Assembly: GCA_036398235.1 (NCBI GenBank) | Contig: DASWHI010000140.1 | Coordinates: 1-59,652 of the forward strand | Length of the DNA stretch: 59,652 nucleotides | Direction: 5' to 3' | Origin: Burkholderiales bacterium | GTDB lineage: Bacteria; Pseudomonadota; Gammaproteobacteria; Burkholderiales; SG8-41 | Shown: positions 48,504 to 57,698 of the stretch, in pieces | Position numbering within the stretch: position 1 is the first letter of the stretch | How the letters are laid out: every line of letters starts with the position of its first letter | Program-made: the position numbers and the translations under genes | The notes under the pieces: generated by a model | The model's database searches: none | Seen by the model: the letters and a program-made list of their open reading frames with translations, nothing else | Told to the model about the DNA's origin: nothing

Positions 48504-48577
48504 GCGGGTGTAGTTCAATGGCAGAACATCAGCTTCCCAAGCTGAATACGTGGGTTCGATTCCCATCACCCGCTCCA
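48504..48577 (+). tRNA. tRNA-Gly (anticodon CCC)
   Basis: Hand-folded cloverleaf: acceptor GCGGGTG/CACCCGC, D stem GTTC/GAAC, anticodon stem TCAGC/GCTGA with loop TTCCCAA, T loop TTCGATT, and an encoded 3' CCA. Confidence 0.9.
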
Positions 48578-48799: not shown

Positions 48800-48841
48800 T
48801 CACCCCCATCCCAACCTTCCCCCATCAAGGGGGAAGGGGAT
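48800..48841. repeat. G/C-rich palindromic repeat
   Basis: tcacccccatcccaaccttcccccatcaagggggaaggggat. Confidence 0.8.
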
Positions 48842-48868: not shown

Positions 48869-49876
48869 TTACGGCTGAGTGGAATTCAGGCCCACGAAGG
48901 TGCCGCCGTTGTAGCGCGCGAGCTCGCGCATCAGCGTGGCGAAACGGACCCCGGTGTAGCTCGACTGCGCCGGCGGCCCGAAAGTCGTCGGAAAACCTAC
49001 GCCGTGGATCCGGACCGGCCGGTTGCCCGAGGCGTCGGGGCGGTTCAACTGATCGACCCTCCGCACCACGTCGTCGATGGAGGGGCCGGTGAACTCGTCG
49101 CCGAAGATGTAGAGGCTGATCTTGTGGTCCGGGTTGCGGTACATGCGGATCGCCGTCTCGATGCCTTCCGCGGGGCTGCTCTTGCTGAACGGCTTCCAGT
49201 CGCGCAGGCGCTCGACGATCGCGGCCCGGCGGGCGGTGCTGTCCGGAATCCACTGGCCGCCGTACTGCGAGAACATGAACTGCCCGATGTCGCTCATCAC
49301 CTGTATGCCCTTGACCCGGGGATAGACCTTGAGGGTTTCCTCCACCTTGCGTCGCATCGCCGACCAGGCGAGCGATTGCATGCTGCCCGAGGTGTCGATG
49401 ATGAATATGACGTACTCGCTGTCCACCGGAATTCCTGCGACGAATCGCTCCGGCGGCGGCGCCCGGCGCTGCGCGAGGAGCCGCTTCATTTCCTCGGTAA
49501 GCTCCTGCTGGGCCAGCGCCAGCTGATCGCGGATGCGGTTCTGCACCGTTGCGGTGTCGCGCGCGGCCCGGTAGCGGCCTTCGATGACGGTGAGTTCGTC
49601 CTGGTAGCGGGCCACCAGCCGCTCCGCCTTCGCGAGATCGGCGTGCTGCGCGGCGAGTTGCGCGCGCAGCGACTTCAGGCGCGCCTCGATCTCGGCGCGC
49701 TCTTCCTGCAGTACGCGCAGTTCGGCGCGCAGCGTCTCCGCGTCGCGTTCCGTCACCTGGGGCTCGGCGCCGCGCGCGATGACGAACAGCAGCAGGACGG
49801 CGCCGAAGCCGCAGAAGATGGCGTCGAGGAACGAGAGCGAGACGCCTTCGAACTCCCGCCTGCGCCGCCGGCTCAC
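48869..49876 (-). CDS. ExbD/TolR-like TM helix + coiled coil + VWA domain protein (paralog 2)
   Basis: GTG start overlapping the upstream stop (GTGA). The N-terminus VSRRRRREFEGVSLSFLDAIFCGFGAVLLLFVI aligns with paralog 1. Long heptad-like segment. MIDAS motif IFIIDTSGSM. Confidence 0.75.
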   Translation of the reverse strand: MSRRRRREFEGVSLSFLDAIFCGFGAVLLLFVIARGAEPQVTERDAETLRAELRVLQEERAEIEARLKSLRAQLAAQHADLAKAERLVARYQDELTVIEGRYRAARDTATVQNRIRDQLALAQQELTEEMKRLLAQRRAPPPERFVAGIPVDSEYVIFIIDTSGSMQSLAWSAMRRKVEETLKVYPRVKGIQVMSDIGQFMFSQYGGQWIPDSTARRAAIVERLRDWKPFSKSSPAEGIETAIRMYRNPDHKISLYIFGDEFTGPSIDDVVRRVDQLNRPDASGNRPVRIHGVGFPTTFGPPAQSSYTGVRFATLMRELARYNGGTFVGLNSTQP

Positions 49877-50967
49877 GGCCAATCCTCCGCGGGGCTGATG
49901 AACGAGCCGCGGCTCACCTGCGCGAGCCGCCAGAAGGCGGACGCCGCCATGGGGTCGCCCTCCAGGGGGAGGAGAATCACGTTGACCGGTATGCCCCGGG
50001 GAAAGCTTGCCAGCGCGTCGTCGAAGTAGCGCAGGCGCTCTCCGCCCGGGATCGTGTAGCGCTCGCCACGCTCGCGGTCGATCGTGGGGAGTCCATCGGT
50101 CACGAGGAACACGTTGTCGGGCCGGGGCTTCAACTCGCTCACGACCTTGAACGCGTGGTAGAGGCTCGTCCCGCCTGCGGGAACGATCTTCTTCGCGGCA
50201 TCGACCGCGCCGTTGAGTACCGCCGGATCGCCCGCGTCGAGCCAGCGCCCGGCGCTCTCGCGCACCACCGGCTCGGCGCGCTCGTTGAAGGCGTAGATCT
50301 GGAATCGCGAGCCGGGAGGGACCTGGGTTGCAATCCAGTCCAGCGTAGCGAGCGCCCGGCGCCATTTGGCCGCCTGGCGCTGCTCGGCCGCGGGAAGGTT
50401 GCGCAGCCGCACGATTTCGGCGATGCGCTCGGCCAGCATGCTCGCGGAGGTGTCGAACAGGATGAGGATGCGCTCGCCTCCGACCTTGAGGCCGGTGAGA
50501 TACTGGCGGTCGCCTTGCCCCCGGAAGGCCCGCAGGCGATCGCCCTCCTCGGCGCGTTGCAGGGCACCGCCTTCCAGGCGCTTCAACTCCTCATCGCGGG
50601 ACTTGAGGTCGGCCTTCAGGCGATTGACATGCGTCTCGCGGGCGATGCTGTTGGTTTCGAGCTGCGCGAGGTCGTAGCGCCGGCCCGCGATGCTCTCGGT
50701 CAGGGTCCGCGCCTGGGCGAACAGGCGCTGATTGCGGCCGCCCGCCCGCTCGACGTCCGCGCCGAGTGCGGCAGCCTGTTCCCGGCCGCTCAAGACCTGC
50801 CGCTCCAGCGCCTCCATTTCCAGTTTGAGGGCCTCGCTTGCCTCGCGCCGCTGGGCGACGGCGCTGTGGCTCAGTATGAGAAACAGCAGCACGAGGGCGC
50901 CAAAGCCGCAGCAGATCGCGTCGAGAAACGACAGGCTGAGGGTCGTGAGAGGGCGGCGGCGTTTCAT
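49873..50967 (-). CDS. ExbD/TolR-like TM helix + coiled coil + VWA domain protein (paralog 1)
   Basis: MKRRRPLTTLSLSFLDAICCGFGALVLLFLIL, a coiled coil, then MIDAS elements LILFDTSASM, GGTSL and LVTDG. Confidence 0.8.
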   Translation of the reverse strand: MKRRRPLTTLSLSFLDAICCGFGALVLLFLILSHSAVAQRREASEALKLEMEALERQVLSGREQAAALGADVERAGGRNQRLFAQARTLTESIAGRRYDLAQLETNSIARETHVNRLKADLKSRDEELKRLEGGALQRAEEGDRLRAFRGQGDRQYLTGLKVGGERILILFDTSASMLAERIAEIVRLRNLPAAEQRQAAKWRRALATLDWIATQVPPGSRFQIYAFNERAEPVVRESAGRWLDAGDPAVLNGAVDAAKKIVPAGGTSLYHAFKVVSELKPRPDNVFLVTDGLPTIDRERGERYTIPGGERLRYFDDALASFPRGIPVNVILLPLEGDPMAASAFWRLAQVSRGSFISPAEDWP

Positions 50968-50986: not shown

Positions 50987-51784
50987 CTAGCTGGTGCGCA
51001 TGTGCCGGATCAGGCGGTCGTTCACGTAGGTCTCGGTATCCAGCGCCAGGCGCTCCTGCGCGAGCTGGAGCTGATGGACCAGAAACATGAGGACAACGGC
51101 GAGCAGCAGGGCGACGAGCGTCGAGTTGAACGCAGTCCCGAGATTCTCCGTGACGCCGGTGATGTCGCCCTGCACCGCGCGATGGGCGAGCTCCATCGCG
51201 TTGCCGATGCCGCGCACCGTCCCGATGAAGCCGATGGAAGGGATCGCCCACGCGATATAGCGGATCTGCGCGAGCTCGGAATCGAGCCGGTCACCCTCGT
51301 TCTGGCACAGGGCGCTCGTGGCGGTGGCCGCGTCCTGCACGCTGCGTGACGTTTCGAACCGCGTGAGCGACTGGAACAGTGCCCGGGGCAGGAGCAGGTT
51401 GCGCAGGGAGGGCTTCAGCGCTTCCAGCGGCTTGGCATAGCGCCGCGCATCCTCCGGCAGGATCTTGATGCCCTCGGCGAGCGGCACCAGGTCGCTCTCG
51501 AGCAATCCGCGCTCGCGCACCACGTCCGCCCACTTGTAGCCGAGTATCGCCAGCGCCCACAGCATGAGTATGATTTCCGCCTCCTGCTCGTAATCCTTGA
51601 GGATGACGTAAATCGAGGTCTCGGCCACCGCGTCGGGCTGCTTGGCCACGAGCGCGCGCTGCTCCGCGAGGTGTGCCTCGGCGTTGGGCCGCACGACGCT
51701 GACGTAGGCGCCGTGGACGAGAATGACGGAGAAGATGAGGGCGAAGAACTGGTAGACGAACTCGGCGGGGAAATGCTTGAACAT
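50987..51784 (-). CDS. MotA/TolQ/ExbB-family proton-channel protein
   Basis: 265 aa. Family-like C-terminal helices IPSIGFIGTVRGIGNAM and LGTAFNSTLVALLLAVVLMFLV, with a large cytoplasmic loop between the TM segments. Confidence 0.7.
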   Translation of the reverse strand: MFKHFPAEFVYQFFALIFSVILVHGAYVSVVRPNAEAHLAEQRALVAKQPDAVAETSIYVILKDYEQEAEIILMLWALAILGYKWADVVRERGLLESDLVPLAEGIKILPEDARRYAKPLEALKPSLRNLLLPRALFQSLTRFETSRSVQDAATATSALCQNEGDRLDSELAQIRYIAWAIPSIGFIGTVRGIGNAMELAHRAVQGDITGVTENLGTAFNSTLVALLLAVVLMFLVHQLQLAQERLALDTETYVNDRLIRHMRTS

Positions 51785-51834: not shown

Positions 51835-52074
51835 TCAGATGTCCACCGGGAAGGAAACTGGGACATCCGATCTGGGCCGTTCCTCGCCGGCTCCCGTTCT
51901 CGGCGCTTTTCGCCGCGGAGCCGGCGGCGTTTCCGGTTTTCCCTGCTTCACCGGCGGTTTCGTCTCCGCGGCGGGCGGTGGCTTCGGGGGTTCGGTTTGC
52001 GGCGCGGCCGGGCTCGGAGCGGCGAGCCATGCCGCCGCCCAGATTGCAAGCGCGATGATTCTGACTGCAGTCAC
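51835..52074 (-). CDS. Small anchored Pro-rich (TonB-spacer-like) protein
   Basis: GTG start overlapping the upstream TGA. VTAVRIIALAIWAAAWLAAPSPAAPQTEPPKPPPAAETKPPVKQGKPETPPAPRRKAP. No globular C-terminal domain. Confidence 0.5.
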   Translation of the reverse strand: MTAVRIIALAIWAAAWLAAPSPAAPQTEPPKPPPAAETKPPVKQGKPETPPAPRRKAPRTGAGEERPRSDVPVSFPVDI

Positions 52075-54410
52075 GGCGCTTCCGTCACGTAGCGGGCGCA
52101 ACGAAACCCCACATCGGACCGCGGCTCCGTGCCGTAGTCCCGGTAGGTCCAGCGCAGCGCGCTCACGCTTGCCTGCATCCAGCTCGAGCCGCGTATGACG
52201 TGCTGCTTCCCCGCGGCCGGGCCGGTCGGGTCTTTCTCCGGCGCGGGGTTGGCCCGGATGTCGTAGAAGTCGTGGACCCATTCGGCGGCGTTGCCGGCGA
52301 GATCGAAGAACCCCGCGGGGCTCGCCGCGAAGCGGCCGATCGGCGCGGTACCCGCGTAGCCGTCGTCAAGGCTCTTCACCGTGTCGGCGAGCTCGCCGGA
52401 TGCCGAGCGGTCGGCGAAATTGCCGCTGCCCCGCGGCGGCGGCAGGTCATTGCCCCACGGAAAGCGGCTGTCCTTTGCGCCGCCGGCGCGGCGCGCTGCC
52501 CATTCCCATTCGGCCTCGGTGGGCAGGCGGAAGCCATTGCGCAGCGGCAGGACGGGTGTGAGCGCGCCCGGTCCGCCCGCATAGCTTGCCGGAAGTTTCG
52601 CCGCTTCGTTCAGCCAATTGCAGTAACCGGCCGCATCTTCCCACCGCACGTTCACGACCGGGTGAGACGGGACGTCGAGCCCCAGCGCGCCGAACCTGCC
52701 CGATTGGTGCTTGGGGCGGTACTTCTGGAATTGGGCGTTGGTCACTTCCGTCGCCCCGAGGTAGTAGGGGCGGACGAGGTCGACTTCGCGCAGTATCTCG
52801 TTGGCGCGCTGGCCCGGATCGCGGCGCGAGGCGCCCAAGGTGATGCGGCCGGGCCGCACGAGGATCATGACCGTGCCGTCCGGCGCCGCAATGCGCTCCG
52901 GCAGCGCGGCCTCCGCCCGCGCGCCGGCGGCGCGCAGCTTGACCGCCCGGGTCTGCTCGAAGCCGGGCTTGGGCGTCACCCAGAGCTGTACTGCCTGGAA
53001 GCCCTCCCGCGTGATCTCGAGGAGCGTCGGGGCAGCGAGAAGCGAATGTCGGCCGTTCGCCGGCCCGACCGCTCGCCCCTCGATGCTCAACACTGCGTCG
53101 CGCGGCTCGACTTCGAGCGTGACGTGACCCAGCTCGCTGCTCAAGGCGAGCTTCAGGTCACGCGCCTCGGCCGCTTCGAGGCGCACGGACCGGCTCGCCG
53201 TGCCGTAGCCGAGCCTGGAAACGGCAATTCGATGCTCGCGTCCCGGGCTGAGGGCGAGCGTGGTGGGGGTAGTTCCGGCGTAGCGGCCGTCCAAGGTGAT
53301 GCTCGCACCCGGAGGCGCGCTCTCCACCCGCAACTGGGCGTCAGCGGGGGAAAGCGCGACGGGCCCGATGGCTTGAGCCTGCCCGGCGGTGACGACGATG
53401 CTGCGCGTCCAGGACTTGTGTCGGGGAGCACGGATCTCGAGCGCCCGGGTTCCCGCGGGGAGGTCAATCGTTAAAGGCAAATCTCCGACCCGCTTGCCGT
53501 CCACCCAGAGCGCTGCGCCCGCGGTGCTCGCGCGAACGGTCACGGCGGCGGAGGCGGGGATGAGAGCCGCGACGATAGACTGGCGTTGCCCGAGTCCCTC
53601 GATCGAAACCGCCTGGGAAAACTCCGCGTAACCCTCGGCTCGAATGACGATCTCGTGATCACCCGCGGCGAGCTCGATGCCGGCGAGAGGCGTGTGCCCC
53701 TTGACCTCGCCGTCCGCAAGGACCGTGGCCTCCGCGATGCCGGGCGTCTCCACAACGAGAATGCCGGGCAGCTTGTCGAGAGCCAGTGACAGGCGTTGGT
53801 TATCCGCCCGGGTGACCTCCACGTCGCGGATGAGTTGCCGGTATCCGCTGCGCTCGGCCACCAGCCGGTATGCGCCGGGAAGCGCAAGGTAGCCTTCCCG
53901 AAGAGGCAGCGCCGGCAGCGTGCCGTGGAGGCTCATGCGGTCAGGTGCGGGCTGGAGCTCGACATAAAGCATGCGCGCGGAGAACACGAACCACAGGGCG
54001 CCCGCAAGCACCGCAAGCGCGAGCAGGACGTAGATCCCGCCGACGCGCCTGCCCCGGGGGGCTGGCGCGGGTAGGGGAGGAGTCAGCAGGATCGGCGGCG
54101 TGGGAGCCGCGAGATCGACATCGGCATCGGTCTGCAGCACGAGCCCGCCGTTCAGGACACGGACCACGAGAACGGCATCGCCGATCCGTGCGCGGTCGCC
54201 GTCACGCAGCCAGTGCGAGGCGGCAAGGCGATGGTCATTGAGAAATACCGCCACCCCGCCTTCGAGCGGCTGCAGGTACGGCGCACCGCCGGCGAGCGCC
54301 AGCGCGGCGCCGGGGCGCGCTCCGTCCGCACCCGGCGTCCTGATTAGCAGGGGCCCTGCGCCGAGATCCCCGTCGTCCACTCCCCGCGATCCGCGCACGC
54401 TGACTTTCAC
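52071..54410 (-). CDS. Cytoplasmic N-domain - TM - 5x PEGA - FGE-sulfatase (SUMF1-like) domain protein
   Basis: TM segment GGIYVLLALAVLAGALWFVF. Repeated PEGA-like units (e.g. VVETPGIAEATVLADGEVKGHTPL...). C-terminal RLPTEAEWEWAARR, GNAAEWV, VIRGSSW and VGFRCA motifs. Confidence 0.8.
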   Translation of the reverse strand: MKVSVRGSRGVDDGDLGAGPLLIRTPGADGARPGAALALAGGAPYLQPLEGGVAVFLNDHRLAASHWLRDGDRARIGDAVLVVRVLNGGLVLQTDADVDLAAPTPPILLTPPLPAPAPRGRRVGGIYVLLALAVLAGALWFVFSARMLYVELQPAPDRMSLHGTLPALPLREGYLALPGAYRLVAERSGYRQLIRDVEVTRADNQRLSLALDKLPGILVVETPGIAEATVLADGEVKGHTPLAGIELAAGDHEIVIRAEGYAEFSQAVSIEGLGQRQSIVAALIPASAAVTVRASTAGAALWVDGKRVGDLPLTIDLPAGTRALEIRAPRHKSWTRSIVVTAGQAQAIGPVALSPADAQLRVESAPPGASITLDGRYAGTTPTTLALSPGREHRIAVSRLGYGTASRSVRLEAAEARDLKLALSSELGHVTLEVEPRDAVLSIEGRAVGPANGRHSLLAAPTLLEITREGFQAVQLWVTPKPGFEQTRAVKLRAAGARAEAALPERIAAPDGTVMILVRPGRITLGASRRDPGQRANEILREVDLVRPYYLGATEVTNAQFQKYRPKHQSGRFGALGLDVPSHPVVNVRWEDAAGYCNWLNEAAKLPASYAGGPGALTPVLPLRNGFRLPTEAEWEWAARRAGGAKDSRFPWGNDLPPPRGSGNFADRSASGELADTVKSLDDGYAGTAPIGRFAASPAGFFDLAGNAAEWVHDFYDIRANPAPEKDPTGPAAGKQHVIRGSSWMQASVSALRWTYRDYGTEPRSDVGFRCARYVTEAP

Positions 54411-55531
54411 ACGCGTTCCTCGCAGGCGACGAAGACGCGCTGCGCCGGCGCATCGGGGTCTACGGTCACCTCGACGCGCACGTCCTTGTAGCCGGGCCGC
54501 GAGCCCACCAGCGTATAGGTCCCGGGCGTCAACGCGACTTCACGATCCTGAAAACGGCCCAGTGGCCCCACCCGCTGGAGCGTGACCTCGGTCGCATTGT
54601 CCGAAGTAAGACGGATCGTGACCTTGTTCGTCGCGCGCTTGAGGGCCGCGTCCAGCCGCTGGCGCTCCTGCGCGAGGCGAGGCCCGGCCCCCGCTTCGCG
54701 GTCGAGCGCGGCGAGAAACTGCTGGGCTTCCTCGCGCACGCGTGGAGAGTAGAGCCGCTCGGGGCTGGCGAGGTAGCGGTCGATCCGCGCGTGCAACCGG
54801 ATCATGCGCTCGCTGCGCGCGATGCCCTGCCGGGCAAAATCGACTGCCGGATCGATGGCCGCGGCGCGTTGATAGGCGGCAAGGGCTTCCTCCCAGCGCT
54901 CCGCCGATTCGAAGCCTTGAGCTTCACGCTGCAATCGGGAGAGCGCGTCGCGCTGCCCGCCCTCCTTCGCGCGCGCCAGCCCGTCCGCGGCCGGCCGATC
55001 GGCGGGGCGAAGCTTCAATGCGGCGCTGAACGATTGCTCGGCCCCCGGCCAGTCGGAGCGCTCCAGCTGACCGAGACCGCGCGTCATCAGCTTGTCGAAC
55101 TGCTGCTCGGCGAGGCGGCCTTCGGCGCGCGCCTGCTCCGGCTTGGCGGCCTTTCCCCCGGGGTCAGCCGCCGGAAGACGCGCGCGGACCTCATCCAGCG
55201 GCTCGACACGGGTGATCCCCTGCTGCGCCTTCCTCCGCTCCGCCTCCTCCGCCATCAGGCGCTGCCGTACCGCCTCCGCCGGGTCTGCGGTCGGGCTTGC
55301 CGCGCGGGGCGGCGAAGGAGGGGCTGCATCGGGGGGCTTGGTGCCGGTAGCGGGCGGCACCCGTGCCGGCAACATGAAGAAGATCACTGCCGTCAGGCCG
55401 AGTGCGGCAATCAGGGCTCCCGCCACCCAGCGGCCCGAAACCACCGCGTGGGTGCGGACACCGATCGGAACGGAGGGAGGCGGGGATGCGTCGCTGCGGG
55501 AATTTCCCGGTGCAGGTGGCGCGCTCGACAT
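54407..55531 (-). CDS. Single-TM TPR-repeat protein with C-terminal PEGA-like domain
   Basis: Start at MSSAPPAP. TM segment WVAGALIAALGLTAVIFFML. TPR-like WPGAEQSFSAALKLRP and WEEALAAYQRAAAIDP. The C-terminus LTPGTYTLVGSRPGYKDVRVEVTV is PEGA-like. Confidence 0.65.
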   Translation of the reverse strand: MSSAPPAPGNSRSDASPPPSVPIGVRTHAVVSGRWVAGALIAALGLTAVIFFMLPARVPPATGTKPPDAAPPSPPRAASPTADPAEAVRQRLMAEEAERRKAQQGITRVEPLDEVRARLPAADPGGKAAKPEQARAEGRLAEQQFDKLMTRGLGQLERSDWPGAEQSFSAALKLRPADRPAADGLARAKEGGQRDALSRLQREAQGFESAERWEEALAAYQRAAAIDPAVDFARQGIARSERMIRLHARIDRYLASPERLYSPRVREEAQQFLAALDREAGAGPRLAQERQRLDAALKRATNKVTIRLTSDNATEVTLQRVGPLGRFQDREVALTPGTYTLVGSRPGYKDVRVEVTVDPDAPAQRVFVACEERV

Positions 55532-55551: not shown

Positions 55552-56793
55552 TTATCGGTTCTGTCCCGGCTCCGGTGACGCGCCCGGCGCCGCCGCCGTC
55601 GTCGGCAGACCGGTCTCCGCGGTGAACAGCTCGCGCAGCGTCTTGCGCCACTCGGCGTACTGCGCGTCGACCGAGCCCGAAAGCTTGAGGGTGCGGCCTT
55701 CGACCTCGTCGAGGACCGGGGCGACATCGGCCTTGAACGACACGCCGAGCTCCTTCAGCGCCGCTTCGTGGACCCTCGCGTCGTTCGCGAACTGTCCGCT
55801 CGAGCGGATGAGCTCGTATCCGCCGATGATCAGCACGTTTGCGGCCGCCGCGCCCCCGCCCGAATTGCTATTGGAGCCGACCACGGCAGCGCCGACAATC
55901 GCCGCGGCACCGAGAATGCGCCGCTCCCAGGTCTTGCGCTCCAGCTCGCGCTTCTGGTTCAGTTCCTGCAGGTAGGACCGGCGCCATTGGCCGTAGGGCT
56001 GCCGCATGTCGTCATAGAGGTTCGCGTAATAGTTGTTCACGGTGTCGATGAACATGTTCTCCCGGGCGCGGATCCGGTTGACGCGCTCGAACATGGGGTC
56101 GCTGTCGGCAGGCAGCCGGTTGACCGTGAATACTCCTTCTCCATTCTGGACCAGGTAGGATGCGAAGGCGTAGGGAACCAGGCTCCGCGCGAACTTGAGC
56201 TGCGCGACCGGCCGGATCGCGGCGATTTCCTTCTCGCTCAACTGCTGGCGGAAGGCCAGCATGTCGTTCGCGACCTGGTTGTAGAGATCCTGGTAGGGAT
56301 CGCGGTCCAGTTTCTTGTCCAGCGCTTCGTAGCTCTTCTCCGTGACTGCCGCTGTGTACTCGTTGTGGAACCACTCGCGGCCGGTAGCATCCACGACCTT
56401 GACCTCGACCCTCAGCCTCTCGCCGTTCGACTCGAGCAGCTTGCCCGAGACGTTGACGTCCACTTCCTCGGCGCGCGCGGGAACGACGCGCACCGCGCCC
56501 CATTGGCCCGTTTGCTGCAGCGTCTTCTTGAGGTGGAACGGAATGAACCGGGCCTCGGCTTCGAGGATCTTGGGATCCGTCTTCTGTTCCCGCGCCGCCT
56601 CGGCGCTGATCTCGGCCGTCTCGAATACCTGAATGCCCACGTCGAGCAGGGCCGCGTCGGCCAGCGCCCGATCGGCGTGAATCGCTTCCGTCGGTTCTAC
56701 GGTGTACTTGACGGGCCCGCTCGCGCAGCCGGAAATGCCGGCTGCCGCGAGCGCCGCGGCGAGCCACCGGAATCCGCGCCGCGCCGCGCTCAC
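55552..56793 (-). CDS. Lipoprotein of unknown function with Gly-rich C-proximal hydrophobic segment
   Basis: GTG start overlapping the upstream TGA. Lipobox LAAAGISGC. Segment ILGAAAIVGAAVVGSNSNSGGGAAAANVLIIGGY. Confidence 0.6.
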   Translation of the reverse strand: MSAARRGFRWLAAALAAAGISGCASGPVKYTVEPTEAIHADRALADAALLDVGIQVFETAEISAEAAREQKTDPKILEAEARFIPFHLKKTLQQTGQWGAVRVVPARAEEVDVNVSGKLLESNGERLRVEVKVVDATGREWFHNEYTAAVTEKSYEALDKKLDRDPYQDLYNQVANDMLAFRQQLSEKEIAAIRPVAQLKFARSLVPYAFASYLVQNGEGVFTVNRLPADSDPMFERVNRIRARENMFIDTVNNYYANLYDDMRQPYGQWRRSYLQELNQKRELERKTWERRILGAAAIVGAAVVGSNSNSGGGAAAANVLIIGGYELIRSSGQFANDARVHEAALKELGVSFKADVAPVLDEVEGRTLKLSGSVDAQYAEWRKTLRELFTAETGLPTTAAAPGASPEPGQNR

Positions 56794-57698
56794 CCTTTGG
56801 TGCCCTGTTTGTACCTGCGGTACTCGTCCCACAGCTTTGCCCTCAGCTCCGGATCGGGTTCCGATTCGGCGAGCTTGCGAATCTGACGCGCGACGACGTC
56901 ATCGTCGGATCCGTCGCCCACATCGGGGGGCCTTGCCGCCGTGGCGCCCGTGGATCCGGGAGTGCCGCCTTCGATCCGGCCGCCCGGAGAACCCGGCTCG
57001 CCGGCCGATCCCTGCGTGGTCCCGCTGCCGCTGCCTGAGCGAGCCACATCAGGGGCCTTCGACCCGGCGCCGCCTCCCTTGGTCCGCCCCTCGGCTGCGG
57101 TGCTCCCGCCGGACCCTCCCGGGGATCCCGCCCCGCCGCTGGCTCCCCGCGTCCGGGCGCGGCGCGCCTCCTCGAGGAGAAGCTGGTCGAAATCCGCGAG
57201 GGAAACGCCCAGCCTGGTTTCGAGTGCCGCCACTTCTTCCGCCTGGGTGGCCGCGGGCGGTGCCTTGCCGTCCCCCGGCATTGCCTGCGGCGCGCTCCCA
57301 GACGCGGAATCTACCGCCTGGGAGAGATTCCGGACCCGCTCGCGGTTCGAAGCCACCATGTCCCGCACGCGCGCGACGTATTCGTCGAGGCGCTGGCGCT
57401 GCTCGGGTCCCGTCGCAGGATCCGAGCGTGCGACCTCCGCACGCTCGGTCACCCGTGCCAGCACCTGCTCGCTGATGGCGAGATCGTGACGCGCTTGGGC
57501 AAGCTCGCTTCGCGGATCGGCATGCGCCGGTGTTGCCAGGATCGCCAGCCATAGCAGTGTCCCGGCCACGTACCCCGCCGCCCGCCCCGGGCGCCCACGT
57601 TCGTGACAAAAGCCGCGACCGCCGCGCCGGCTTTGGCCGGTGGCTTGGCGAGCGCGGGTGCTGAATCGTGCCCCGTCAAATAACCTCTTGATGTGCAT
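56790..57698 (-). CDS. Secreted coiled-coil / Gly-Ser-rich protein with acidic C-terminal helix
   Basis: ATG at 57698 chosen (the longest ORF begins at a TTG at 57794). Hydrophobic LLWLAILATPAHA followed by DP. C-terminus DDDVVARQIRKLAESEPDPELRAKLWDEYRRYKQG. Start uncertain. Confidence 0.5.
   Translation of the reverse strand: MHIKRLFDGARFSTRARQATGQSRRGGRGFCHERGRPGRAAGYVAGTLLWLAILATPAHADPRSELAQARHDLAISEQVLARVTERAEVARSDPATGPEQRQRLDEYVARVRDMVASNRERVRNLSQAVDSASGSAPQAMPGDGKAPPAATQAEEVAALETRLGVSLADFDQLLLEEARRARTRGASGGAGSPGGSGGSTAAEGRTKGGGAGSKAPDVARSGSGSGTTQGSAGEPGSPGGRIEGGTPGSTGATAARPPDVGDGSDDDVVARQIRKLAESEPDPELRAKLWDEYRRYKQGTKG

Follow-up and report, generated by a model that had tools for sequence, protein, structure and literature searches.

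The p1/p2 gene pair and the adjoining channel gene

A 59,652-nt stretch of a Burkholderiales bacterium genome (contig DASWHI010000140.1), which in its entirety we call the window, carries on its minus strand a conserved gene cluster that includes two tandem genes, here termed p1 (49873–50967, 364 aa, ATG start) and p2 (48869–49876, 335 aa, GTG start). The gene ahead of this pair (50987–51784, minus strand) ends 19 nt upstream of p1 and codes for a 265-aa channel protein of the MotA/TolQ/ExbB family, which matches Pfam PF01618 above the cut-off (E 5.5e-12) and putatively forms the pentameric A subunit of a membrane motor. We favour, with somewhat better than even confidence, the interpretation that p1 and p2 both serve as B-type subunits (also called axle or 'stator-plug' subunits) in a MotA/TolQ-family proton motor, and that together they constitute its '2' as a heterodimer.

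The GTG start codon of p2 (49876–49874) overlaps the TGA stop codon of p1 in the sequence GTGA and is preceded by a GGAGGA Shine-Dalgarno sequence. A longer open reading frame (ORF) of 498 aa, which overlaps p1 by about 490 nt, was rejected as the p2 gene; because the orthologues are 335 aa long with full coverage, and independent gene calls agree, p2 is taken to be a protein of 335 aa. On contigs with an identical p1 these gene calls give 364 and 335 aa with a 4-nt overlap. The identification of p1 as a gene draws on its ORF, on more than 5600 homologues and on invariant columns in their alignment, and that of p2 on orthologue length, gene calls and conservation; for both it is complemented by structure prediction and structural comparison.

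That these two tandem minus-strand ORFs are related to each other had been proposed in a first-pass annotation of this DNA, and the proposal is borne out. BLASTP aligns their N-terminal 184 aa with 33% identity (E 1e-15), and a profile-profile comparison of the two families with hhalign extends the match to 320 columns (probability 99.9%, E 2.7e-31); on the strength of these comparisons p1 and p2 are true paralogues, well beyond chance. The motifs quoted in that annotation are likewise all present, namely the shared N-terminal motif, DTSAS...GGTSL...TDG in p1, and DTSGS, SSPAEG and FGDEF in p2. An exhaustive HMMER search, which also supplied the p2 representatives used below, placed 269 clusters at 50% identity in the p2 family at E <= 1e-30; relaxing the limit to E <= 1e-3 raises this number to 1418. 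These proteins have largely gone without annotation: none of p1, p2 and the unassigned cluster proteins has a family in NCBIfam, gene tables of contigs carrying the locus list no Pfam match for either p1 or p2, and the homologues are mostly named 'hypothetical protein'.

A shared architecture of membrane helix, stalk and VWA head

Both proteins begin with a short Arg/Lys-rich segment, followed by a hydrophobic helix with the signature SFLD-x3-CGFG. In p1 this transmembrane (TM) and putative transpore helix spans residues 12–34 (50866–50934, minus strand), with the codon of Asp16 at 50920–50922, and in p2 residues 14–36 (49769–49837, minus strand), with that of Asp18 at 49823–49825. The aspartate is invariant in the orthologue alignments of both families (D16 in alignment A1, D18 in alignment A2), and when representatives with at most 50% mutual identity are aligned, D18 is retained in 103 of the 106 sequences that have no gap there. 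Because each protein has just one TM helix, whose conserved Asp occupies the position seen in ExbD, TolR and MotB, we assign p1 and p2 to the B-type subunits.

AlphaFold2 models (mean predicted local distance difference test score, pLDDT, 78) show a single continuous helix in each protein (residues 12–134 in p1, 16–136 in p2), which encompasses the TM segment and a stalk of about 100 residues. The stalks, residues 35–134 of p1 (50566–50865, minus strand; about 15 nm if helical) and 37–136 of p2 (49469–49768, minus strand), both display the 3.5-residue hydrophobic periodicity of a coiled coil. They are followed by a linker predicted with low confidence, which has around 30 residues and is disordered in p1 and around 18 residues in p2, and then by a C-terminal alpha/beta domain modelled with a pLDDT of about 90. 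In Foldseek comparisons with the PDB both C-terminal domains, which we term heads, match VWA domains with a probability of 1.0 (E 1e-6 to 1e-8 for p1); ITIH1, CLCA1, ANTXR2/CMG2, TFIIH p44 and the Cav alpha2delta subunit are matched by both, and BatB is among the matches of p1. The VWA heads comprise residues 166–364 of p1 (49876–50472, minus strand) and 155–335 of p2 (48872–49414, minus strand). This assignment needed structure prediction, since searching the PDB with a p1 sequence profile gave only coiled-coil noise; the Pfam VWA_2 profile matches both proteins below its threshold (E 1e-4 for p1, 6e-4 for p2).

Both heads carry a conserved motif for a metal-ion-dependent adhesion site

The VWA head of p1 has a canonical metal-ion-dependent adhesion site (MIDAS), D172-x-S174-x-S176...T267...D291, all five positions of which are invariant, in agreement with the full motif read from the sequence in the first-pass annotation. 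The same annotation regarded the later Thr and Asp positions of p2 as altered and envisaged one ligand-competent and one degenerate head. Here our results depart from it, because p2 possesses a complete MIDAS-like set, D161-x-S163-x-S165...S233...D260. In the hhalign alignment T267 of p1 falls on S233 of p2, a Thr-to-Ser replacement that keeps the hydroxyl, and D291 falls on D260, with the Asp retained. The predicted structures place these residues in equivalent loops: T267 of p1 precedes the helix 269–278 and S233/S234 of p2 the helix 236–246, and the Asp lies at the end of the central strand in both cases, D291 after strand 285–290 and D260 after strand 253–259.

Conservation of the p2 site was assessed in an alignment of 112 sequences, comprising p2 of the window and 111 near-full-length representatives with at most 50% mutual identity and 33–57% identity to it. 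D161 is kept in 110 of these sequences, S163, S165 and S233 in 111 each, and D260 in 109; since all five metal-site positions are kept in at least 109 of 112, they are under purifying selection. P235 (109/112) and G238 (110/112), which accompany S233, are comparably conserved. The adjacent S234 is less conserved, and the candidate metal ligand is S233 or S234. As judged from this alignment, the p2 head bears a MIDAS motif with a conserved replacement of Thr by Ser, and hence a predicted metal site, rather than a decayed motif. An obligate heterodimer in which only the p1 MIDAS works, with the p2 head as a degenerate, non-binding scaffold, would account for the missing canonical Thr and TDG motif of p2 and for its lower VWA_2 score, but the near-invariance of the aligned S233 and D260 and their canonical loops within a predicted VWA fold make such an arrangement very improbable. 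Beyond the shared site, each head has invariant surface motifs of its own: RNLP...KW...DW, EGDP and a C-terminal DWP in p1, and GIPVDSEY, W.PFS.SSP.EG, GDEF and RIH.VGFP in p2.

Universal pairing of p1 and p2 in related loci

A scan with a p1 profile across one genome per GTDB species recovered 564 relatives, the best 80 loci of which were used for comparison, with gene order established by local phmmer searches of the window proteins against six-frame ORFs. These loci come from Burkholderiales and many other Gammaproteobacteria, Acidobacteriota, Desulfobacterales, Myxococcales and Kiritimatiellia. Homologous operons with only one VWA gene, the pattern that the first-pass annotation had set against a heterodimer, are not what is seen: both p1 and p2 are found in 77 of the 80 loci, and the remaining three contigs end within 273 nt of the p1 stop codon. 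In all 77 informative loci p1 comes first and p2 second, an order thus maintained in at least five phyla (Proteobacteria, Acidobacteriota, Desulfobacterota, Myxococcota and Kiritimatiellia). The pair is kept translationally linked, with the start of p2 overlapping or abutting the stop of p1 in 41 of 68 loci and a spacer of at most about 60 nt in 61 of 68. Where the sequence reaches far enough, a single motA-like gene is found upstream of the pair, either adjacent to it or with a single gene for an FHA-domain protein in between.

The two proteins are readily told apart throughout this range. ORFs of the p1 type score at least 327 bits against p1 and at most 49 against p2, and those of the p2 type at least 308 bits against p2 and at most 51 against p1. 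This clean separation into a p1 and a p2 clade implies that the duplication predates the spread of the cluster. Even a distant marine lineage, the Porticoccaceae, has the same cluster with both genes; measured against the query representative P0384, which shares just 33% identity with p2 of the window, the p2 proteins there have identities of 53% (P0392) and 39% (P0428). Carriers of the cluster also include Halieaceae.

Stalk features bearing on hetero- versus homodimerisation

If both proteins are axle subunits, they could pair with each other or each with itself, and it is on account of their constant co-occurrence that we propose a heterodimeric '2'. Other features of the stalks bear on the same choice. 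The spacing between the TM Asp and the first MIDAS Asp is 154–158 residues in p1 and 142–145 in p2, but hhalign accounts for the difference by a 12-residue insertion in the p1 linker, and the helical stalks are therefore of equal length. Their heptads are also in phase: the hydrophobic profiles of the two stalks correlate best (r = 0.48) at an offset of +2, which is the very offset that superposes D16 and D18. A g-e' charge score calculated for 77 pairs is -4.0 for p1/p1, +1.6 for p2/p2 and +2.7 for p1/p2. In 88% of the pairs p1/p2 scores above the mean of the homodimers, and when heptad-shifted controls are compared, the in-register p1/p2 alignment scores best. The predicted salt bridges thus weakly favour p1/p2 over p1/p1.

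The core positions of the coiled coil differ consistently between the two families. At aligned a/d positions conserved residues of p1 and p2 are, respectively, Gly versus Ile/Leu, as at stalk index 30 of p1, Leu versus Thr, Ser/Ala versus Leu/Ile, and Leu versus Arg/Gln/Lys, and p1 additionally has conserved Arg/Lys at core positions where p2 has Ile/Leu. These asymmetries are real, although their energetic meaning is ambiguous and they do not amount to strong evidence for either arrangement. With all the stalk features considered, p1 looks poorly suited to homodimerise.

The competing arrangement consists of two homodimeric axles, p1(2) and p2(2), which share one MotA-like pentamer and thereby generate two motor species with different heads and targets. 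The TM segments of the two proteins are almost identical, and either could fit the pore; the p2/p2 charge score is mildly favourable, and no significant covariation was found between the cores of p1 and p2. Such a division of labour sits poorly with the strict one-to-one co-occurrence, fixed order and frequent start/stop overlap of the genes across all 77 loci, with the net repulsive p1/p1 score, with the conserved Gly, Ser/Ala and Arg/Lys of the p1 core where p2 has Ile/Leu, and with the matched lengths and heptad phase of the stalks, and we regard it as unlikely. A parallel, in-register coiled coil of p1 with p2 fits the data; the evidence from the stalks is suggestive of it, not proof.

The channel protein and the search for a conventional B subunit

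Within the channel protein the segments WAIPSIGFIGT189VRGIG and AFNST222 are near-invariant in 76 orthologues, and in a weak alignment to TolQ structures (E 0.085) its GTV and NST motifs lie opposite the GTV and ATA motifs of TolQ. Four apparent hydrophobic segments (about residues 9–31, 67–84, 173–195 and 213–237) can be read from the sequence; this is a MotA-like topology, yet the best match is to TolQ, which has three TM segments.

A conventional partner for this protein was sought with E. coli TolR and ExbD as phmmer queries. No ExbD/TolR-like ORF was detected at E <= 10 either among the ORFs of the window or in the 80 related loci, each taken with flanks of up to 10 kb on either side, the sole exception being a spurious 14-bit match, and Pfam scans of the cluster proteins gave no ExbD, MotB or OmpA match.

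These observations bear on the possibility that p1 and p2 stand outside the pore, as Bat-like VWA adhesins or sensors or as peripheral transducers comparable to TonB or TolA, with the true B subunit encoded elsewhere. Only 59.6 kb of the genome is visible, and TM-anchored VWA proteins that operate without motors do exist in the form of BatA and BatB, the latter being one of the structural matches of p1. The resemblance to the Bat proteins lies in the membrane-anchored bacterial VWA domain itself; they have neither the coiled-coil stalk nor the Asp-bearing ExbD-like helix nor a MotA-like partner, and the MoxR-type ATPase and other genes of Bat operons are absent from the present cluster. Further, the membrane-embedded Asp is conserved at an ExbD/TolR-like position in both p1 and p2, none of the 80 loci supplies an ExbD or TolR, and the SHLS motif is reported to be missing from the family (Williams-Jones et al. 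2025, PMC12204202). We accordingly consider a role outside the pore improbable.

The conserved gene cluster and its surroundings

Where enough sequence is available, the related loci share a common gene order: a signal-peptide protein, a lipoprotein, a TPR protein, a PEGA/FGE-sulfatase protein, the MotA-like protein, p1 and p2. In the window the first four are encoded between 52071 and 57698, and these genes are conserved upstream of motA in all loci that extend far enough. The first gene of the cluster (56790–57698, minus strand; 302 aa by gene call) codes for a protein with a signal or TM segment, a coiled coil and a Gly/Ser-rich region, to which no family could be assigned. It is followed by the gene for a putative lipoprotein of 413 aa (55552–56793, minus strand), which has the lipobox ...ISGC and matches no Pfam family, and by that for a 374-aa protein (54407–55531, minus strand; length by gene call) with a TM segment, TPR repeats and a CarboxypepD_reg-like domain. 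The fourth gene (52071–54410, minus strand) specifies a 779-aa protein that combines a TM segment and PEGA repeats (PF08308, E 2e-39) with a C-terminal FGE-sulfatase domain (PF03781, E 3.8e-45). Upstream of the first cluster gene there is a divergent AsmA-family gene, which only the closest relative shares.

Between the FGE-sulfatase gene and motA lies a small ORF of 79 aa (51835–52074, minus strand), the GTG start of which overlaps the upstream TGA stop in the sequence GTGA. Its predicted product consists of a signal peptide, a Pro-rich middle portion and a C-terminal end reading ...VSFPVDI. No gene is called for it on the ENA contigs that carry the locus; in Porticoccaceae a gene of 93–95 aa is called at this place. 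The C-terminal motif F.PSE.I..D..V.FP.DI* recurs in 56 of 68 related loci, across phyla. One locus (L015, CAMAXE010000004.1) is titled 'MAG: Klebsiella pneumoniae', and its small-ORF C-terminus is identical to that of a locus from an uncultured gammaproteobacterium of a water sample (L013), with nearly equal cluster scores; the taxonomic label of L015 looks wrong.

In most other lineages (L008–L080) an extra gene is inserted between motA and p1. It encodes a protein of 416–500 aa with a C-terminal FHA domain (for example at L044:8590-10014 and L014:8620-10005), and PF00498 was detected with E 1e-10 to 1e-12 in two of the four proteins scanned. The gene is absent from this position in the Burkholderiales lineage of the window (L001–L007) and in L069, and no homologue occurs anywhere in the window. 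For the N-terminal part neither Pfam nor PDB sequence searches returned a family; a first impression of an Hsp70/actin-like N-terminus was set aside, as these searches support only the C-terminal FHA domain.

The cluster lies in an ordinary chromosomal housekeeping context that shows no signs of mobile elements. A tRNA-Gly(CCC) gene (48504–48577, plus strand) separates it from the thiS-thiG-trmB genes, and apart from this tRNA, Rfam searches and promoter and terminator scans of the region gave nothing informative. About 30 nt past the p2 stop codon there is a perfect 9-bp G+C-rich inverted repeat, CCTTCCCCC-TTGAT-GGGGGAAGG (48815–48837, minus strand), with no T-run after it. It could be a terminator or an element of the repetitive extragenic palindromic (REP) type at the end of the operon; a consensus terminator scan did not report it.

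A proposed heterodimeric axle with two different adhesive heads

In the motor that we propose, a pentamer of the MotA-like protein would surround one p1 helix and one p2 helix, in a 5:1:1 arrangement. Protonation cycles of D16 and D18, or proton flow by way of them, would bring about relative rotation of the two parts. The stalks would form a parallel, in-register heterodimeric coiled coil and hold the two different VWA heads some 15 nm or more above the inner membrane. Force would then be transferred as the heads bind, by way of their MIDAS, to partners in the periplasm or outer membrane that offer acidic ligands. The most plausible such partners would be products of the cluster itself: the lipoprotein, the TPR protein, the PEGA/FGE-sulfatase protein and the small secreted protein with its acidic C-terminus. 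As a speculation, the last of these (...FPVDI-COOH) is a candidate MIDAS ligand. Of the heterodimeric '2' of a 5:2 motor envisaged in the first-pass annotation, the B-type features and the constant co-occurrence of the two genes stand, and the unequal division into one competent and one degenerate MIDAS falls away.

Several considerations weigh against this interpretation. The 5:2 stoichiometry, the insertion into the pore and the heterodimerisation are all features that we infer. The sequence similarity of the A subunit to solved TolQ structures is weak at the E value given above. The TolR and ExbD queries may be approximate, and a canonical ExbD or TolR may be encoded beyond the 59.6-kb window. 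The charge score is a modest signal that derives from a crude register assignment and from phylogenetically related sequences, and it does not predict a p2/p2 homodimer to be unfavourable. Finally, side-chain volumes at aligned core positions show no significant covariation (mean r -0.04, against 0.00 +/- 0.16 for non-aligned pairs).

A more ambitious and decidedly tentative extension of the heterodimeric-axle interpretation is that p1 and p2 form the axle of an uncharacterised envelope-spanning machine encoded by the whole cluster of 8–9 genes, including the FHA protein in most lineages. The T-type and S-type heads would each grip a different partner from the cluster, one candidate being the acidic C-terminus of the small secreted protein. 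Alternatively, the heads may engage each other by way of the invariant DWP at the C-terminal end of p1, much as integrin alpha-I and beta-I domains do. The whole would be an analogue of PorLM-PorKN or Agl-Glt assembled from unrelated parts.

Relationship to known motor systems

The arrangement shares with ExbB-ExbD, TolQ-TolR and MotA-MotB a PF01618 A subunit with conserved Thr residues in its TM segments, and B subunits with a short basic cytoplasmic N-terminus and one TM helix that bears an Asp of the essential type. It differs from them in that the helix leads into a coiled-coil stalk some 100 residues long and then a VWA head, instead of the ExbD/TolR fold or an OmpA-like peptidoglycan-binding domain, and in having two distinct B genes where those motors have one. 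Two different B-type genes also accompany a single A gene in Myxococcus, where AglR functions with AglQ and AglS, and in exbB-exbD1-exbD2 operons. A further instance is the tolQ gene of the Planctomycetes-Verrucomicrobia-Chlamydiae (PVC) bacteria, which occurs with two heterologous tolR-like genes (Williams-Jones et al. 2025, PMC12204202). All three resemble the present locus in that a single A gene is accompanied by a pair of paralogous B genes with the Asp, an arrangement suggestive of a heteromeric axle; their B subunits are small and TolR/ExbD-like, in contrast to the coiled-coil stalks and VWA heads seen here.

Another parallel is offered by the GldLM/PorLM-PorKN systems of type IX secretion and gliding, which have a 5:2-type motor, a GldM/PorM dimer that spans the periplasm and an FGE-sulfatase-family protein, GldK/PorK. 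The best NCBIfam match of the 779-aa cluster protein is in fact GldK (TIGR03525, E 3e-31), but it is confined to the FGE-sulfatase domain and, with 109 bits against a cut-off of 350, so far below the cut-off that membership of GldK/PorK was rejected. The 779-aa protein is moreover TM-anchored and has PEGA repeats, and no homologues of GldL, GldM or GldN were seen; the likeness is architectural only. A role as an anti-phage system of the Zorya ZorAB kind was likewise rejected. Zorya systems pair ZorB with a ZorA whose cytoplasmic tail is long, and add ZorC/D or ZorE as partners. In PADLOC the A subunit of the window gave only marginal ZorA matches (E 0.005, 14 bits), p1 gave none, and p2 only marginal matches of the coiled-coil type (LmuB and LeoA, E 0.004–0.007).

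The closest precedent is the in-silico description of 'TPH-vWA' proteins by Williams-Jones et al. (Mol Biol Evol 2025, PMC12204202), that is, TM-tethered vWA proteins which are tightly linked to tolQ homologues, without tolR or exbD, and which have no reported phenotypes and no known function. Their transpore helix, with its conserved Asp, is predicted to insert into a TolQ-like pentamer, as depicted in AlphaFold3 models, and the proteins, for which Idiomarina loihiensis provided the seed, are 'predominantly found in heterologous pairs', with Proteobacteria and Verrucomicrobia as the main carriers (PMC12204202). The locus in the window agrees with this description in its tolQ-type neighbour, the absence of a syntenic tolR, exbD or motB, the Asp-bearing helix of the transpore type, the C-terminal vWA domain and the heterologous pair, and further in the conserved Thr residues of the A subunit, the disordered segment before the vWA domain and the range across Proteobacteria and Verrucomicrobia/PVC. 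In the AlphaFold3 complex of that paper conserved Thr residues of the A subunit form a ring in the pore around the Asp pair; Thr189 and Thr222 of the window protein, near-invariant and aligned with the TolQ GTV and ATA motifs, are candidates for such a ring. We place it with TPH-vWA by these described features rather than by sequence comparison with the Idiomarina loihiensis seed. Full-text literature searches turned up no further description of the system beyond that paper, and the idea of a heterodimeric axle is a rediscovery of its published hypothesis (PMC12204202). The text of the paper does not treat MIDAS status, stalk register or the other genes of the cluster (FGE-sulfatase/PEGA, TPR, lipoprotein, small secreted and FHA proteins). 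What is added here is the universal pairing of the two genes in the sampled loci, the matching of the stalks in length and register, the conservation of a MIDAS-type site in both heads, and the conserved cluster with its small ORF.

Significance

If the proposed motor is real, p1 and p2 would belong to a widespread class of ion-driven 5:2 motors, with at least 269 p2 clusters at 50% identity in several Gram-negative phyla, the axle of which is a heterodimer that ends in two different metal-dependent adhesion heads. Torque or tension would be delivered by bonds between a MIDAS and its ligand, in place of peptidoglycan binding or an adaptor of the TonB type, and this would widen the range of outputs for motors of the MotA/ExbB type. 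Such a system would also provide a natural test case for how asymmetric axles work within a five-fold ring, with the conserved cluster as a source of candidate binding partners for the two heads.

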